The notes under the pieces: generated by a model
Seen by the model: only the letters and a program-made list of their open reading frames with translations
Database searches by the model: none
Told to the model about the DNA's origin: nothing
Sequence record: KM657822
Source: Escherichia phage vB_EcoM-VpaE1
Strand: one strand, 5' to 3'
DNA length: 64,000 nt
Translations under genes and position numbers: made by a program
Shown here: positions 3,660-54,262 of the stretch, in pieces
How the letters are laid out: the number at the start of each line of letters is the position of its first letter
Position numbering within the stretch: position 1 is the first letter of the stretch

Positions 3660-4208
3660 ATGAAGAAATTGATTCTAGGTTTGTGCTTAATGCTTACAGC
3701 ACACTTATCTTATGCAGTTGACTGCCCAGAGCTATCAATTAGCCAAAAAGTAAACATGTTAAAAGCTTACCAGTATGGTGAGAATAACATGGGTAAAGGT
3801 TGGGGTATAACTCTAGCTGCTATAGCCTTACAAGAGTCAGAGTTAGGTCTGAAGGTAGAGAATAAAAAGACACATGATTATGGTATTTTCCAGAATCACT
3901 TGAAGACTGTTGTAAAGCGTAACAAAATTAGTCCTAATGTGGCTAAAAAGAAACTCTTAAAAGACTTTGACTATGCTGCAAAGGAAACGCACAAAGAGCT
4001 TGAGTTTTGGACAAAGGTACATGGTCAGCCAAAGTCAAAGAAGACTTTACAAAAAGTTTTAGCATCATATAATGCTGGGTATTCGTACAGAATCCCTAAA
4101 GCTAAGAAGTATTCTCAAGATGTCTATAACAACATGAAAGTTATCGCTCAATGTGAATTTGCAACAAACATTTCTAAGGTAAATCATGAAAAAATTAAGA
4201 AAGTCTGA
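3660..4208 (+). CDS. secreted protein, lytic transglycosylase (SLT)-like
   Basis: N-terminal signal peptide MKKLILGLCLMLTAHLSYA; AIALQESELG...YGIFQ resembles the SLT catalytic-Glu region. Confidence 0.4.
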   Translation: MKKLILGLCLMLTAHLSYAVDCPELSISQKVNMLKAYQYGENNMGKGWGITLAAIALQESELGLKVENKKTHDYGIFQNHLKTVVKRNKISPNVAKKKLLKDFDYAAKETHKELEFWTKVHGQPKSKKTLQKVLASYNAGYSYRIPKAKKYSQDVYNNMKVIAQCEFATNISKVNHEKIKKV

Positions 4209-5408: not shown

Positions 5409-5756
5409 ATGACATTTAAAGAGTTCTGTCAAGCTACTTTCATAATTGTTTTCTTAGTTGGTGCAGGTGTCTGGGGAGGATACTCTTACAGAGACTATCA
5501 AGTTGCTGAAACTGAGCTAAACAATCAAAAGCTCATAAGTGTTGCTAAAGATGCTTATCAGGAAGGATTAGTCACACTGAGCACCAATTACAAAAATGAT
5601 TTGAAAGATGTGCTTGCTAAGAATAAGCATACAAAAGAGGTACTAACATATGAAAAAACTAAGCCAGAGTTTTATAATGTTTGTGTTACTGATAACTATG
5701 TCAGGGTGTTCAACGAACAAAGTGAACAGTACATTCAAAAACTCCCAAGTAAGTGA
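5409..5756 (+). CDS. candidate i-spanin (Rz-like)
   Basis: N-terminal TM segment then helical periplasmic-type region; overlapped at 3' end by a lipoprotein ORF in another frame. Confidence 0.4.
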   Translation: MTFKEFCQATFIIVFLVGAGVWGGYSYRDYQVAETELNNQKLISVAKDAYQEGLVTLSTNYKNDLKDVLAKNKHTKEVLTYEKTKPEFYNVCVTDNYVRVFNEQSEQYIQKLPSK

Positions 5757-17079: not shown

Positions 17080-17613
17080 CTATAATTGTAGGTTGCATTC
17101 TTTACTTACCTCTTCAAGTTTAACCTCAGAATCCTTAAGTCGTTTCTTATGAACTCTGAACCTCATTAGTGAGATGATGATACCAGCTAAAGGAACAACA
17201 TACAAGTACCAGATATCATGTAGCTTTGCAGTAATCTGTGTAATTGTCAAGTCTTGAGCTATGTAGCTGATTGCTGATACAGCTAGTAATGTTGCTAAGA
17301 AGAACACTAGTATCATAACAATATTTAGGCAGCCTCTGGCATGATATTCATGCTTAATGCACTTGTTCTTTTCGTCAACAACCCTGTTGTAGTCGTTTGT
17401 AAAGTCTCTGTAGAAAGCTTTCAAGTATTCTTGACTGTAGCCCTCAAAGCAACCTGTACCGTACCAATAATCACCACCAAAATGTGCTATGATACCGGTA
17501 TCTCCATTCGGTTTGGTTACTCTAAGAGAAGTATGATGACCAGTCTTCTGGTAATCTATTTTGTATCTTTCTTCGTAAATCATTTCCCAACCCCTCTCAA
17601 TCGTTTGTTCCAC
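17080..17613 (-). CDS. hypothetical membrane protein
   Basis: ORF with predicted TM helices in the C-terminal half. Confidence 0.45.
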   Translation of the reverse strand: MEQTIERGWEMIYEERYKIDYQKTGHHTSLRVTKPNGDTGIIAHFGGDYWYGTGCFEGYSQEYLKAFYRDFTNDYNRVVDEKNKCIKHEYHARGCLNIVMILVFFLATLLAVSAISYIAQDLTITQITAKLHDIWYLYVVPLAGIIISLMRFRVHKKRLKDSEVKLEEVSKECNLQL

Positions 17614-27894: not shown

Positions 27895-27970
27895 GGGGTC
27901 ATAGTTTATATGGTTAAAATTCGAGTTTTGCAAACTTGGGAACTGAGTTCAATTCTCAGTGACTCCACCA
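27895..27970 (+). tRNA. tRNA-Ala (TGC)
   Basis: Anticodon stem cgagt/acttg, loop ttTGCaa; CCA. Confidence 0.7.
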
Positions 27971-27976
27971 ATTAGT

Positions 27977-28051
27977 GCATCCATAGTTTAAACGGGAAAA
28001 TTACAGTCTTCCAAACTGAGGTTGAGGGTTCGATTCCCTCTGGATGCTCCA
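27977..28051 (+). tRNA. tRNA-Gly (TCC)
   Basis: Anticodon loop ctTCCaa; T-loop GGTTCGATTCC; CCA. Confidence 0.65.
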
Positions 28052-28057
28052 AATAAT

Positions 28058-28134
28058 GCTGCTTTCGTATAATTGGCTATTACACATCCCTTGTAAGGAT
28101 GGAAATGCAGGTTCGAGTCCTGTGAGCAGCACCA
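28058..28134 (+). tRNA. tRNA-Thr (TGT)
   Basis: Anticodon stem catcc/ggatg, loop ctTGTaa; CCA. Confidence 0.7.
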
Positions 28135-28229
28135 ATTCAGAGGTCAAGTGAAAGACCGCTGGTGTCAACTGAAGACCGTAACAAATTCCACGGAGTTGAG
28201 TTAGCGGCACAACTTCAGACCTCTTTCAT

Positions 28230-28305: not shown

Positions 28306-28383
28306 GTTCCAGTATCCCAATTGGCAGAGGATGCAAGCTCAAACCTTGTACTAGTGACGGTTCGAATCCGTCTTGGAACACCA
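28306..28383 (+). tRNA. tRNA with CAA anticodon (Leu by anticodon; short variable arm)
   Basis: Anticodon stem gcaag/cttgt, loop ctCAAac; T-arm gacgg-ttcgaat-ccgtc; CCA. Confidence 0.6.
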
Positions 28384-28402
28384 ATTTTGAGAGGCTATTT
28401 AG

Positions 28403-28960
28403 ATGAGATATTTGAAGTATGCTTCATGGATTTTCCTAGCTTTACTAGAACCATTTGCAGCAACCCTAGCAGTCATCTTAGCACCTTTCGTAGTTCCATT
28501 CTACAGTGAGAAGAAAGGACATCTACCTTTTGGATTCAGATGGATGGAGACCTATGACAACCCAATTGATGGTGATGAAGGCCACGTTAAAAGATGGGCT
28601 AAGATTAGAAAGATTGGTAAGCTGGGTGTCTACATGCAGAGAGTTGGATGGCTCTGGAGAAACAAAGCTTATAACTTCTCTTACCATGTATTAGGAAGAG
28701 ATGTAAAAGATGTTACTAAGTGGAAAGGTAATATCAACGTAAGTTCTAACCCTGAAGATAATCAGACTGGTTATCTCCTAATGTGGAACAGTAATGCTTG
28801 GGGATTATTCGCTTTTATCCCATCAATTAAAGTCTTTGGTAAACAGTTTTACTGGAGAATTTATGTTGGGTGGAAACTTAAAAGTGTTGTCCCAGAAGAA
28901 AGAGCATTCTCAAGGGAAAGAGTTATGTTGGCATTCTTTATTCATCCACTGAGAAAGTAA
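28403..28960 (+). CDS. hypothetical membrane protein encoded inside tRNA cluster
   Basis: 185-aa ORF with N-terminal hydrophobic segment, Trp-rich; no tRNA overlap. Confidence 0.5.
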   Translation: MRYLKYASWIFLALLEPFAATLAVILAPFVVPFYSEKKGHLPFGFRWMETYDNPIDGDEGHVKRWAKIRKIGKLGVYMQRVGWLWRNKAYNFSYHVLGRDVKDVTKWKGNINVSSNPEDNQTGYLLMWNSNAWGLFAFIPSIKVFGKQFYWRIYVGWKLKSVVPEERAFSRERVMLAFFIHPLRK

Positions 28961-28968
28961 AGATTTAA

Positions 28969-29044
28969 AGGGGATTAGTTTACAAGGTTAAAACCTCGGT
29001 CTTTGAAATCGAAGAAGTTGGTTCAATTCCAACATCCCCCGCCA
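28969..29044 (+). tRNA. tRNA-Gln (TTG)
   Basis: Anticodon loop ctTTGaa; unpaired 1-72 (A/C); CCA. Confidence 0.65.
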
Positions 29045-29411: not shown

Positions 29412-30146
29412 ATGAAAGAGATGACAGAACAAGGTAAGGAGATTTTTAATCTCTTAAAAACCGGTAAAGGGTTTTCTAACCCACTTATTACTGGTGCAGC
29501 AGTTCTCGGTGGAACCGTAGCTGCCTCTACATCACTTGTAAGCTCTATTAGCTCTGTAACAGACCCTGCAATGAAGGAGAAACTTGTTGCTGCTGGACTT
29601 ACAACAGTCCTTCTAAACAGCTTTACAACAAGCCTTACAAGCACTACAGCAACTACTAAGACCCTAACAGACTACGGTCAAAAGTCTATTGATGAGTTTT
29701 CATCACGTATGCAGGTAGCAAAGGGATATTCCAATGTTATGGGTGCAGCAGGAGAACAGGTTGGTTGTACACCATTCAGTGGTATTATGGGTGTTGCTAC
29801 AGAATATGGTCAAAAAGCTATTGACACAATTAACAGTACACTAGATAGTGTTAATGGTGTGTTAAGTGACTTACAAGATGCTATTGATAAGGGTCTTGAT
29901 ACTGTTTCTGATTTAGCTAACCAAGCTGTTAGTAAGATTAATGAAGGTATCTCAAAGATTACAGCTTATGCAGATGAAGTTGTGCAGATGATTGAAGAAG
30001 AAGCTGCCCTTATTGCAGAGTACCTTAAAACGAATATCAATGGGTTCTTAGCAGGTATCTTACCAGACTGGTTTGACGATGCTTGTAAAACTGGTGTGAT
30101 TGACACTATTGCAACACCAGAAATGAAGAACGCATTACAGAAATAA
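29412..30146 (+). CDS. hypothetical protein (Gly/Ala-rich N-region, helical C-region)
   Basis: Start moved to ATG 29412 after aaaggtg RBS, downstream of tRNA-Phe. Confidence 0.5.
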   Translation: MKEMTEQGKEIFNLLKTGKGFSNPLITGAAVLGGTVAASTSLVSSISSVTDPAMKEKLVAAGLTTVLLNSFTTSLTSTTATTKTLTDYGQKSIDEFSSRMQVAKGYSNVMGAAGEQVGCTPFSGIMGVATEYGQKAIDTINSTLDSVNGVLSDLQDAIDKGLDTVSDLANQAVSKINEGISKITAYADEVVQMIEEEAALIAEYLKTNINGFLAGILPDWFDDACKTGVIDTIATPEMKNALQK

Positions 30147-30482: not shown

Positions 30483-30506
30483 GACGGTCTCCGTGCCGTC
30501 TTTTTT
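30483..30506 (+). terminator. intrinsic terminator after tRNA cluster
   Basis: Hairpin gacgg...ccgtc followed by T6; a second hairpin plus T-run lies at about 30358-30417. Confidence 0.6.
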
Positions 30507-30542
30507 AAGGGGAAACAAGATTAATTATTTGGAGAAAACATA

Positions 30543-50042: not shown

Positions 50043-51215
50043 ATGGCAGTAGGTGAAATTCAAATTAGTGCCTTGCCTCAAGCAGCCTTACCAATTGACC
50101 TTAGTGATATCTTCCATCTTAAGCAGGGTATTGAGGATAAGAGATGTACTCTTGAGCAATTACTTGCTCCACACTCAAGCCTAAGAAATAACCCTCATGG
50201 TGTTACTAAAACACAAATTGGTTTAGATAATGTTATTAACGCCCTTCAGTTAGTTGCTGCAAATAACTTATCAGATATTGTTAATGTAGCTGAGGCAAGA
50301 GCAAATCTACAGATTATGTCTTCAGAAGAGGTTAATAACCTTGTTCAACAGCATATTCAGGACAAGAGCAACCCACACAATACAACTAAGGCACAGGTTG
50401 GTTTAAGTAATGTTCAGAACTGGACAACATCTAACCTTTATAATGAGGATGCAGATAAGTACGCTACAGCAAGAGCAGTAAATAACTTGTACAAGGCTGT
50501 TCAGGCTTCCTATCCAGTAGGTACTATCCATCTTTCCATGAACTCTGCAAACCCCTCTACATATTTAATTTGTGGAGGTACTTGGGAGTTAGTTTCAAAG
50601 GGTAGAGCATTGGTTGGTTATGACTCTGACACAAGACCAGCAGGTTCTGTATTTGGTGCTTCAACTGTCACTTTGTCAGTTAATAACATGCCTCAACACT
50701 CTCACTCTGTGTCTCTTAGTGGTGGTGGTCATACTCATAATGCAACGGTGTCAATTTCAGCTTTTGACTATGGGGCTAAGACTACCAACTCTTTTGACTA
50801 TGGAACAAAGGATACCAATACAACTGGTAACCATACACACAACGTATCAGGGAACACAAGTACAAATGGCACTCACAACCATGATGTATACCCTAGAGAA
50901 AATGATGGTACTGGTAATGCTGTAGCTGACTCTGATGGTGGTGGTGCATGGAGAACATCAAGAACATCTAGTGACGGTGCACACTCACATAGTTTTAGCG
51001 TTACATCTGGTACATCTGGTAACCACAGCCACTCTGTAGGTATTGGTGCTCACAGCCACACAGTCGGTATTGGTTCACATACACACAGTGGTGCTGTGAC
51101 AGTTTCTTCTTCTGAGCATACACATAGTGGCAATACGAATAGTGTTGGTGGAGGTCAGGCAGTTAATATTGAACAGCCATCCTTCGTACTGTATGTATGG
51201 CAGAGAACAGCTTAA
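50043..51215 (+). CDS. tail fiber protein with C-terminal HxH-repeat tip
   Basis: C-terminal repeats [32 protein letters not shown]; C-terminus shared with the next fiber. Confidence 0.65.
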
Positions 51216-51225
51216 TTTCTTTACA

Positions 51226-51246
51226 GGGGCTTTCAAGCCCCTTTTA
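51226..51246 (+). terminator. intrinsic terminator
   Basis: Hairpin ggggctttcaagcccc followed by T-run. Confidence 0.65.
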
Positions 51247-51261
51247 AGAGGAAAATTTATA

Positions 51262-53616
51262 ATGGCAGATTACAATTTGAGTGAATTAAACTCAATCGAT
51301 ACAATCCGTTCAGATGACCTTCTTCATGTCAGAGTTAAAAAGAGACCTGAAATGCTTGGCGATGAAGACCGTCGAATGACTTATCAAGATTTATTAGCGT
51401 CTTTTAAACTTGAAAGATTTGTTCAGATTGCTGGTAGTAATATGACAGGTGACTTAGGGATTGTTAAGTTACTTTATGGTGGTAAGGCAGTATTTGACCC
51501 AACAGGCTCTTCTGAGATTAATATTGGGGATGTTTTAAAGACTTTTAAAATTAACGCAAATGGTCTTAGGCTAACTATTACAGATGCTTCAAGGTCAGCA
51601 ACTGTTTATCATACTCTGAATAAACCAAGTCCTAATGAACTTGGGATGAGAACTAATGAAGAGAATGATGCAAGATATGCAAGGTTGGCTGTAACAAATA
51701 ACTTCAACATTAGGCAAGCAATTGTCGTTGATGGTGAGCAGTTAACTCTTAAGAAAGCAACTAATGCAGGAGCTTCATATATTCAGGGTAGAAATGCTAA
51801 TAACCAGCAAACGTGGTATGTTGGACAGGGAAATGCAAACAACACTAATGTTTATCTGTACAATCATGCCACTGGCTCAATGTTAACCCTTGACGCAACA
51901 GCGTCATTTAACAAGACACTAAGAGTCATGGGTCAAGTTCAGCCTTCTGACTTCTCTAACTTAGATGCTAGATACTTCACTCAGACAGTTGCTAATCAGA
52001 GGTTTGCACAGTTAACTGCGAATAATACTTTTAGAGGCGTGAATACATTTAATCAAATCCTATCAATTGAGACGAATAGTGCAGCCTTAAGGTTAAAAAA
52101 TACTGTAGCTAATGGTGCACTGTACATTAAAGGTGAAAGTAATGATGGCTCTAGTAAGTGGTATGTAGGTAATGGTGATAATACACCTGCCGTATTAATT
52201 CACAACTATACATATGGGTCTAATCTTAGACTCGACAATGGTTATGTTGAGGTTAATAAGCAACTTAAAGTCGTTGGTCAAGTTCAACCTTCTGATTGGA
52301 CTAACATTGACTCTAGATATATTCCGGCAGGAACTTTGAGTAATCTTGCTAAACTTAATGTATCTAATACTTTCACAAATGTGCAAACTATTGTGTCTGA
52401 CAACGAGGGTTTGGTATTAAGGAGCTTAACACAGGGACAGCCACAATATATCCGTGGTGTTGATACTGCGAATGTATCTAGGTGGTGGCTGGGCGCAGGA
52501 AGTGCTAATTCTAACGTGGTAACCTTGAGCAACAGCTTTTCAGGCACTCAAATTTCCCTAGAGCCAACATTGGTTAGTATGAATAAGAACCTGTATATTA
52601 ATGGGCAGGTTCAACCACAAGATTGGTCTAACTTAGATGCTAGATACTTTGTTAAAACTAAGTTATTAGACCAATCCTTAATGACTGTAACTGTAAATAA
52701 CCTCGAAGACCACCCAGCATTTAATCTTGGGTACTCAGGCTTTGTCAGAAACAATGGTGTTACTGACGGCTTGAGGGATTTGGCAATTCATGTTGCACAC
52801 TCTAGCAAGACTGCTGCATATGCAAGAGGTATCTCTTTTTCGTATGGCTCAATGGGTTTAGGGGTATTCACCTATGCCTATGATGACGAGGGTGAATACG
52901 CTGGAGAAGCACAGCTTTATACAACTGATTTTAAACCAACACCTTCAGATATTGGTGCATATACTAAAGCTGAAACTGACCAGAAGATTGCACAGGCAGT
53001 AAGTGACTCTACAGACCTTAATAAAATCTATCCAGTAGGTATTGTAACGTGGTTTAATAGTAACGTTGACCCTAATACAGCACTTCCTGGTCTAACTTGG
53101 ACGTACCTGAATAATGGTGTTGGTAGAACTATCAGAATCGCAGCAGCAAATGGTTCAGATGTTGCTACAACAGGTGGTTCAGATTCTGTGACGCTATCTG
53201 TTGGTAACTTGCCATCACACACCCATAGTTTCTCTGCTACCACTTCATCTTTTGATTATGGTACGAAGGGAACTAACACTACAGGTGGACACACTCACTC
53301 TGGTAGTGGTTCTACTAGCACAAATGGTGAGCACAGCCACTACATCGAGGCATGGAATGGTACTGGTAGAGGTGGTGATAAGATGTCATCATATGCCGTA
53401 TCATACAGGACGGGTGGGAGTAACACTAATGCAGCAGGGAACCATAGTCATACTTTCTCTTTTGGTACTAGCGGTGCTGGCGACCATTCCCACTCTGTAG
53501 GTATTGGTGCTCACAGTCACACAGTCAGTGGTAATACTGGTGGTACAGGTTCTGGTTCAGCATTTAGTGTTACCAACCAGTTCTACAAGTTAATGGCTTG
53601 GGTAAGAACTGCTTAA
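51262..53616 (+). CDS. long tail fiber protein with internal repeats and HxH-repeat tip
   Basis: Start set at ATG 51262 to avoid overlap with previous gene; three repeats ending GQVQPSD(W/F)(S/T)N(L/I)D(A/S)RY; C-terminus paralogous to previous fiber. Confidence 0.7.
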
Positions 53617-53890: not shown

Positions 53891-54262
53891 ATGAAGTGGC
53901 TAGAGGAAGCTTTTAAAAACAATATTGGTGCAATTGTTGTTGGTATTTTTAGTGTTATTGGGATGTATACCACCATGCAAGTTTCAAGTGGTAAGCAAGA
54001 AGTGTCTATCACAACAAAGTTACAGCAGCTAGATAATTATTCCAAAAGTAATTATTCAGCTATTCGTGATTTACAGTCTGACATGAGACTGCTTCAGTTA
54101 GGGATGGAGAACCAGAAAGTCCAGTTAGAGAATGTTAAGGGAGAGAACGCAAAACTTACTAAGACTCTTGATAAATTCTCTGATAGCGTGAACAATCTGG
54201 CTCAGTCAGTATCAGCCCTCCAAGCTATTACTGAAAAGAACACAAAGAATACTGAAAAGTAA
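53891..54262 (+). CDS. membrane-anchored coiled-coil protein (lysis-associated candidate)
   Basis: N-terminal TM then coiled-coil. Confidence 0.35.
   Translation: MKWLEEAFKNNIGAIVVGIFSVIGMYTTMQVSSGKQEVSITTKLQQLDNYSKSNYSAIRDLQSDMRLLQLGMENQKVQLENVKGENAKLTKTLDKFSDSVNNLAQSVSALQAITEKNTKNTEK

Follow-up and report, generated by a model that had tools for sequence, protein, structure and literature searches.

A tRNA-embedded gene of Felix O1-type phages encodes a predicted single-span membrane protein of family DUF7338, a candidate component of lysis control

Embedded in the tRNA cluster of Escherichia phage vB_EcoM-VpaE1 (sequence record KM657822) is a protein gene that we have examined within a 64,000-nucleotide stretch of the phage DNA, hereafter called the window. 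Its product is a member of DUF7338, a large family of phage proteins predicted to be anchored in the inner membrane by one N-terminal helix. Two genomic associations of this family are non-random: in large virulent myoviruses its genes are linked to tRNA clusters, and in other phages to lysis cassettes. Because the gene adjoins host-lysis genes in distant phages, the protein probably acts at the cell envelope, and tRNAs are probably not its target. The reading that we favor, with a probability of roughly 0.45, is that DUF7338 proteins are envelope components of lysis control, either of the holin class themselves or partners or regulators of a holin.

The open reading frame (ORF) occupies positions 28403..28960 on the plus strand and encodes 185 amino acids from an ATG start to a TAA stop codon, exactly as in the original prediction, which had been made from the letters of the window. 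Over the region compared, identity is 98.7% with Escherichia phage EC106 and about 98% with Salmonella phage Felix O1, and we therefore assign the window to Felixounavirus. The orthologue of the ORF in Felix O1 is ORF48 (Felix01p097, NP_944875, annotated as “Phage conserved protein”), and it lies at the equivalent place in front of tRNA-Gln. ARAGORN finds 25 tRNA genes in the window, all on the plus strand between 25483 and 30320, with 18 of them upstream and 7 downstream of the DUF7338 ORF. The placement between tRNA genes without overlap proved correct: tRNA-Leu(caa), with an encoded CCA (28306..28383, plus strand), ends 19 nt before the start codon, and tRNA-Gln(ttg) (28969..29044, plus strand) begins 8 nt after the stop codon. 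Both flanking tRNAs are called alike by ARAGORN and Rfam, and Rfam matched no RNA family inside 28403-28960. The 19-nt leader contains a Shine–Dalgarno sequence, GAGAGG (28389..28394, plus strand), read from the sequence 8 nt before the ATG. A recent foreign origin of the gene was considered and rejected, given that its GC and GC3 values are at the genome average.

Homology search and expression timing had been proposed as checks on this gene. The protein matches Pfam DUF7338 (PF24027) over its full length, with 206 bits against a cut-off of 27 (E = 5e-61) and with residues 1-184 lying on profile positions 1-176 of 180, and it also matches phrog_2143 (E = 1e-80). Both are families without an assigned function. 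No other Pfam family matched at E up to 1, nor did any NCBIfam or PADLOC (anti-phage defence) model at the same threshold, and there is no match to the spanin families of Pfam or PHROG. A word-indexed search returned 39 relatives, all of which carry PF24027; tBLASTn found homologues in 563 phage records; and a profile search of 1.84 billion cluster representatives yielded 894 clusters (50% identity) at E up to 1e-3, 394 of them reaching 1e-10 or better. With few exceptions their lengths fall between 160 and 200 amino acids. Members are stand-alone proteins, and the longer ones carry no second Pfam domain; a lone fusion to a tail-fibre domain, on a 1.2-kb contig, looks like an assembly chimera and was set aside. 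Among 22 distinct Felix-like alleles, pN/pS is 0.08 at a pS of 0.21, which identifies the ORF as a coding gene under strong constraint. The conservation on which the original prediction had been made to depend is evident in the phage records, the clusters and this ratio, and the ORF is a genuine gene and no chance reading frame.

Carriers detected by tBLASTn comprise Felix-like phages, Otagovirus phages of Pseudomonas, some jumbo phages and many T4-like Straboviridae, the last infecting Klebsiella, Enterobacter, Cronobacter, Citrobacter, Salmonella, Escherichia and Aeromonas. All classifiable carriers are myovirus-type phages. The cultured hosts are all Gram-negative, and prophage copies occur in Betaproteobacteria and in one diderm Selenomonadaceae genome, so that the family has been met only in phages and prophages of diderm hosts. 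The range of prophages and hosts is under-sampled, because our scan of a genome collection with a narrow alignment gave six loci only. In T4 itself, no homologue was found among e.2-e.8 and trna.2/trna.3, the genes of the region from e to the tRNAs. The neighbours of three further copies (P0027, P0025 and P0031) and of the copy in phage phiT5282EW are unannotated. Both the sequence family and the position of the gene are already catalogued, and neither is new as an object.

The protein was originally described as Trp-rich, and tryptophan indeed makes up 10 of its 185 residues (5.4%), the highest proportion among the 69 window ORFs of at least 100 amino acids (mean 1.0%). It has a pI of 10.0 and lacks cysteine. 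Its sole hydrophobic segment, residues 7-33 (28421..28501, plus strand; maximum Kyte–Doolittle value 2.1), is predicted as a transmembrane (TM) helix by hydropathy, alignment, AlphaFold and family statistics alike. The view of the product as a membrane protein with an N-terminal hydrophobic segment is borne out by the family: such a helix is present in 95% of 174 members and is the only hydrophobic segment in 88%. The AlphaFold model, built from a 26-sequence alignment, has a pLDDT of 94.3 and a pTM of 0.84. It opens with a 32-residue helix (residues 2-33), continues with a short helical sub-domain (43-96) and closes with a five-stranded antiparallel sheet (106-184). The short N-terminal flank of the helix is more net positive than the C-terminal flank in 82% of the 174 members, and an N-in/C-out orientation is predicted on that basis. 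We infer from these features that the window protein is a bitopic inner-membrane protein, with about 6 residues in the cytoplasm, one TM helix, and an alpha/beta domain of about 150 residues in the periplasm. This predicted periplasmic domain is rich in Trp and in Arg/Lys, and the mean net charge of the C-terminal domain across the family is +6.6.

Conservation is concentrated in three motifs. Just beyond the membrane helix lies a T-x-D-N-x-(I/L)-D-G-D loop (residues 50-58; 28550..28576, plus strand), in which T50 (98%), D52 (89%), G57 (95%) and D58 (80%) are retained in the broad alignment. The second is WLWRN (residues 83-87; 28649..28663, plus strand), and the third is an R-x-x-x-G-W-K strand motif (residues 152-158; 28856..28876, plus strand) with W157 at 95%, K158 at 92% and R152 at 80%. 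Across 65 diverse sequences, W83, R86, N87 and G156 are invariant; T50, G57, G109, G123, W157, K158, P42 and P182 each exceed 90%; and R80 is kept in 80%. Within the TM helix, closer relatives additionally conserve W9, P28 and an acidic residue, which in the window protein stands at position 15. A cysteine pair, as a sign of a periplasmic disulfide, was sought in the 65-sequence alignment, which has one semi-conserved Cys (69%, position 150) with no partner. Under the lysis-control reading, the invariant W/R/N surface would serve to bind a partner protein or some ligand in the envelope. Structure searches with the AlphaFold model found no solved relative, a viral structure library returned only members of the family, and a profile search of PDB sequences gave no meaningful match.

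In the more distant members, the DUF7338 gene stands where the tail-fibre genes give way to the lysis cassette. When seven endolysin seeds were used, an endolysin gene was found within 1 kb of DUF7338 in 8 of 32 protein clusters (70% identity). The chance expectation is about one cluster, given our rough estimate that 1.5-6% of random genes in a phage of 40-170 kb would lie this close. This is a clear enrichment, and the count of eight is probably too low; many of the loci without a nearby endolysin are truncated, and the seeds were few. Three Pfam types of endolysin occur beside the gene (loci are designated by L numbers), namely Phage_lysozyme (L061, L067, L007), Amidase_3 (L065) and GH108 (L089, L087), and a partnership specific to one enzyme is therefore unlikely. 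The count of eight also includes an amidase-like neighbour, described below, that was judged by its sequence. In Aeromonas phage phiWae14, a lysozyme gene follows DUF7338 immediately, 1 nt away, and in the T4-like phage S16 lysozyme gene e lies 0.9 kb downstream.

The typical gene order is tail fibre, tail-fibre assembly protein, sometimes a small TM protein, DUF7338, sometimes another small TM protein, endolysin and spanins. Thus, L061, L072 and L078 carry a tail fibre, an assembly-like protein of 244 amino acids, DUF7338 (whose start overlaps the preceding stop), a small TM protein, a SAR-type Phage_lysozyme and a spanin. L089 has a tail protein, a 193-aa protein, DUF7338, a 96-aa protein, the GH108 endolysin, proteins of 72 and 75 amino acids and an Rz-like spanin, and L087 runs from tail fibre through DUF7338, a 180-aa protein and GH108 to an i-spanin and a lipoprotein o-spanin. 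In L081-L085, the DUF7338 gene is convergent with a complete lysis cassette. The L106 prophage has a tail fibre, an assembly protein, a TM protein, DUF7338, a multi-TM protein, a 138-aa protein, a weakly Rz-like protein and an integrase. L065, L066 and L073 are closely related contigs that share a tail fibre, an assembly protein, a 109-aa TM protein and DUF7338. The gene downstream of DUF7338 encodes Amidase_3 in L065 (10625-11197), and in its place L066 (2772-3311) and L073 (10619-11158) have a 179-aa protein that we call amidase-like from its sequence only. The two upstream membrane-protein genes are conserved and the endolysin appears to be swapped, a pattern of modularity that is typical of holin-endolysin cassettes.

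The association with tRNA genes extends over at least four myovirus lineages. DUF7338 genes are embedded in or stand beside tRNAs in Felixounavirus and Mooglevirus; the homologue in Otagovirus VCM (28% identity) starts 18 nt after tRNA-Gln; and that of Avunavirus Av-05 (79% identity) is likewise tRNA-linked. In several genera of Straboviridae, the gene lies 0.07-1.2 kb downstream of tRNAs, and in L043 and L049 it is embedded among them. In an unclassified lineage (L056, L059, L062), the upstream tRNA ends 16-270 nt before the gene. Frequent immediate neighbours are tRNA-Arg(tct), tRNA-Gln(ttg) and tRNA-Met(cat), which are also the commonest phage tRNAs in general. No tRNA is found within 10 kb of many distant members, and the protein therefore needs no phage tRNAs nearby.

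Av-05 and the window share more than the gene. The DUF7338 ORFs are 74% identical at the nucleotide level, and identity between Av-05 (L030, 9563-9739) and positions 27965-28225 of the window is 83-88% over tRNA-Gly and the roughly 87 nt of intergenic spacer next to it, the order of tRNAs in Av-05 being otherwise different. This sharing fits a model in which unrelated myoviruses exchange cassettes from one tRNA cluster to another. The position of the gene would be best explained by co-expression with the tRNAs together with a role of tRNA clusters as exchange points between large myoviruses.

Published data on Felix O1 establish that the gene is transcribed, as the original prediction presupposed. 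A reverse transcription PCR (RT-PCR) product of the orthologue ORF48 reached its maximum 5 min after infection (PMC3185647, Table 3). ORFs 45, 46 and 49, which also lie in the Felix O1 tRNA cluster, were likewise maximal at 5 min, whereas the peak of the lysin gene ORF35 came at 25 min (PMC3185647). These times are no more than a rough guide, because the assay was an end-point gel RT-PCR that also placed the capsid gene at 5 min (PMC3185647).

Consensus scanning of the plus strand revealed no promoter-like or terminator-like site directly flanking the ORF. Just upstream of the first tRNA are two sites that resemble sigma-70 promoters by consensus match only, one at 25427..25456 (10/12 matches, extended TG) and another at 25336-25364, both on the plus strand. 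A third candidate of the same kind, TTGACA-17-TATAGT at 26833..26861 (plus strand, 11/12 matches), lies inside the cluster and shares its hexamers and spacing with promoter “P45” of Felix O1 (PMC3185647). It is the nearest site with at least 10/12 matches upstream of the ORF on the same strand; between it and the ORF the scan gave no plus-strand promoter-like site except a weaker match (9/12) at 27254-27282. Downstream on the plus strand, the strongest terminator-like site is a hairpin with four G-C pairs and an uninterrupted T run at 30483-30510, after the last tRNA gene (tRNA-Cys); a weak match with five pairs and no T run is found at 29469-29482.

A second protein gene is embedded in the cluster in the same manner. 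It encodes a DUF7217/phrog_2114 protein at 29412..30146 (plus strand), with its ATG 16 nt after the CCA of tRNA-Phe and its stop codon 1 nt before tRNA-Ser. A mechanical ORF call begins at a GTG (29349) inside tRNA-Phe; the Felix O1 annotation and the sequence favor the ATG at 29412. The product has weak PHROG similarity to tape-measure-like proteins, and Gp49 is listed as a virion protein in the Felix O1 paper (PMC3185647). Because no promoter-like or terminator-like site directly flanks the DUF7338 ORF and tRNAs bound both genes closely, we infer that the DUF7338 and DUF7217 mRNAs are parts of the tRNA precursor, with ends set by tRNA processing. Host RNA polymerase would then transcribe the DUF7338 gene early, as part of the tRNA operon, and the mRNA bounded by the processing sites would have a 19-nt leader, mostly ribosome-binding site, and an 8-nt trailer. 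With the ORF ends only 8-19 nt from the tRNA genes, tRNA processing alone would define a near-minimal mRNA. Otagovirus VCM and contigs L056 and L059 likewise have the start codon 16-20 nt after a tRNA. Embedding appears to be a property of the operon and not of the DUF7338 protein, since the unrelated DUF7217 gene is embedded alike.

To the original prediction, which assigned no function, we add the family, its genomic company and the source of the holin labels attached to it. The genome announcements of phages Mushroom and Moogle, whose annotators were at Texas A&M, mention a “class-III holin (1 TMD; N-in, C-out)” or a “putative holin”; the Mushroom record puts this label on the DUF7338 gene, and the HP1 record (HP1_24) copies it. 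These GenBank labels rest on predicted topology only and have spread from a single such call. To our knowledge, no experiment has yet pinned down the holin of phages of the Felix O1 type.

Several findings weigh against a role in lysis, and most of all against a role as the holin. Literature searches with DUF7338, its accessions, the PHROG identifier and Felixounavirus transcriptomics found no experiment on any member. Homology to T4 holin T was rejected, a 65-sequence profile aligned to T by hhalign giving a probability of 0.2%, and neither Pfam nor structure searches detected likeness in sequence or fold to any characterised lysis protein. About three quarters of the 32 protein clusters have no endolysin within 1 kb. 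In phages KP15, KP27 and Miller, DUF7338 (at about 50.1-51.0 kb) coexists with complete lysis sets, published as a T-type holin (215 aa), an RI antiholin, spanins and an endolysin, so that DUF7338 would be dispensable as a holin there; this coexistence with complete T/RI sets is one of KP15-like and RB43-like phages. Most DUF7338-bearing cassettes also hold small TM proteins that resemble canonical holins. Early transcription of ORF48 would be unusual for a holin, as far as an end-point assay that also placed the capsid at 5 min can be read. In sum, DUF7338 does not present itself in other phages as the sole or required hole-former with late expression.

The arrangement of lysis genes in the window points the same way. 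The endolysin gene (20474-20938, minus strand) lies 7.5 kb from DUF7338, and the lysis genes are dispersed, with a separate Rz-like i-spanin at 5409-5756. No TM ORF in the window matches a PHROG holin family. Another candidate for the holin is a 123-aa ORF at 53891-54262 (plus strand) with an N-terminal TM segment and a coiled-coil tail. Following the tail fibres (50043-53616) as the last gene, it has the position of t in T4, and it corresponds in position to gene 79 of Felix O1, a holin candidate in the list given by the Felix O1 authors, from which gene 48 is absent. Small TM and coiled-coil genes built like this ORF flank DUF7338 in L061 and L106. Two further envelope-type ORFs were noted in the window: a 177-aa ORF at 17080-17613 (minus strand) with two C-terminal TM segments (phrog_4343), and a 182-aa ORF at 3660-4208 (plus strand) with a signal peptide and a weak match to SLT transglycosylase (E of about 1e-3, below the Pfam cut-off).

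Within the lysis-control reading, the parts deserve slightly different weight. That DUF7338 is an accessory or regulator of lysis is conceivable, although we would not expect it with any confidence; that it is the actual hole-forming holin of Felix-like phages we consider unlikely. A more far-reaching proposal, which we regard as doubtful, is that DUF7338 is a widespread and hitherto unrecognised lysis-control class of type II inner-membrane proteins, their periplasmic fold lacking a solved relative, that serve contractile-tail phages either as a large T-independent holin or as a general antiholin or lysis sensor. In the large virulent myoviruses, the mRNA would moreover be cut from the tRNA precursor by RNase P and 3′-end processing, and this cutting would set an early dose of the protein.

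Among explanations unrelated to lysis, the strongest is that DUF7338 acts in superinfection exclusion or early envelope protection, in the manner of T4 Imm, Spackle, T5 Llp or HK97 gp15. An early, inner-membrane-anchored protein would use its periplasmic domain to block genome delivery, or the tail lysozyme, of contractile-tail phages arriving later. Such a role would account for the early transcription in Felix O1 and for the location of the gene in early or middle regions of T4-like phages, among runs of small early-type genes, and it agrees with a predicted topology that faces the periplasm and with carriers that, where classifiable, are all of the myovirus type. Contigs of temperate type also place the gene after the tail fibres or near the integrase, positions that are typical of morons and exclusion genes. 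However, exclusion proteins tend to evolve fast and to be tied to one receptor or lineage, whereas the invariant residues of DUF7338 span phages with different receptors. The recurrent position directly upstream of several endolysin types, with overlapping start and stop codons, would be left unexplained, and the lack of any Pfam match besides DUF7338 implies no likeness to Imm or Sp, if Pfam holds them. We consider this reading improbable, much as we do a hole-forming role.

Less probable still is that the protein is a periplasmic enzyme or ligand-binder for peptidoglycan, lipid-linked precursors, lipopolysaccharide or phospholipid that acts independently of lysis timing. The motif-like conservation of T50, D52, G57 and D58 near the membrane and of W83, R86, N87, R152 and K158 farther on is what such a protein might display, as are a domain very rich in aromatic and basic residues and a family confined to diderm hosts. 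The invariant residues are W, R, N and G, however, with no invariant acid or nucleophile (D52 and D58 fall short of invariance, at the percentages given above); no related fold of known activity was found, and domain fusions give no hint of one. The weakest proposal, that a basic C-terminal domain lies in the cytoplasm (N-out/C-in) and binds or protects tRNAs, draws on the adjacency of the gene to tRNAs in Ounavirinae, several Straboviridae genera, Otagovirus, Avunavirus and the unclassified lineage and on the pI of 10 and positive charge of that domain, but it is very improbable given the many members remote from any tRNA, flank charges that favor the opposite orientation in most of the family, structure searches that detected no RNA-binding fold, and the equal embedding of the unrelated DUF7217 gene.

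Several other features of the tRNA cluster may be recorded. Directly upstream of it, on the same strand, is a 471-aa ORF (23902-25317, plus strand) with DUF2828 and DUF7788 and a match to phrog_850 (“RNA-binding protein”), which is a possible RNA-related partner of the cluster. A tRNA-Met(cat) at 25736-25812 (plus strand) is called by ARAGORN only, the Rfam tRNA model being silent at E up to 0.01; it has perhaps diverged or is a pseudo tRNA. CAT is also the anticodon of another tRNA, at 26664-26740 beside tRNA-Ile. Four gaps of 240-430 nt (26155-26583, 26818-27066, 27144-27381 and 27472-27727) have no convincing ORF. A T-arm-like hairpin occurs at about 26359-26375, and a weak Rfam match resembling a permuted tmRNA covers 26760-26943 (32.5 bits, below the 47-bit threshold). 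The Felix O1 cluster contains HNH endonuclease genes (ORF44, 45 and 47) that the window does not have.

The typing and the biocontrol of Salmonella both make wide use of Felix O1-type phages. If DUF7338 controls lysis, it would be a large addition to the lysis toolkit, with its hundreds of clusters (894 at 50% identity) and a fold that has no solved relative, and this would explain a gene common to T4-like, Felix-like and P2/Mu-like phages. If it is unrelated to lysis, then the holin annotations in GenBank need correction. In either case, the two tRNA-bounded protein genes offer a simple, testable case of tRNA processing that defines phage mRNAs, and a DUF7338 mRNA cut out by tRNAs, if real, would be a phage version of tRNA-punctuated gene expression.

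The closest precedents for such an mRNA are tRNA-operon transcripts. The E. coli thrU-tyrU-glyT-thrT-tufB operon has a protein gene inside a tRNA operon, and T4 segB is located between tRNA genes; like DUF7338, these are protein genes inside a tRNA unit without a flanking promoter or terminator. The phage gene differs from tufB and segB in that both ORF ends are within 8-19 nt of tRNA genes. With the exclusion proteins T4 Imm and Sp, HK97 gp15 and T5 Llp, DUF7338 shares early expression, an envelope location and, in some phages, proximity to tail-fibre genes, but it has no homology to them, is far more widely conserved than is usual for such proteins and is repeatedly linked to endolysins.

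DUF7338 also has features of known regulators of lysis. T4 antiholin RI and the Mu releasin gp25 (DUF2730) are, like DUF7338, small early proteins with an N-terminal membrane segment and one soluble domain, and DUF7338 is encoded in or near lysis cassettes as RI-type regulators are, beside both SAR-type and cytoplasmic endolysins. It differs in giving no Pfam match to them, in having a larger domain whose fold lacks a solved relative, and in having a strongly hydrophobic helix (16 of 27 residues by count) that is not SAR-like. From T4 holin T, DUF7338 is set apart by the lack of sequence homology and of any T-like fold among its structural matches, by its coexistence with a genuine T in KP15, KP27 and Miller, by its early expression in Felix O1 and by a cytoplasmic N-terminus of about 6 residues compared to about 30 in T. 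Nevertheless, T4 t follows genes 37 and 38, and DUF7338 often follows tail-fibre and assembly genes beside an endolysin. Like T, the protein is predicted to have one TM helix, an N-in/C-out orientation and a periplasmic domain of about 150 residues, and thus to possess the topology of a class III holin, with a single TM domain and a large periplasmic C-terminal domain.

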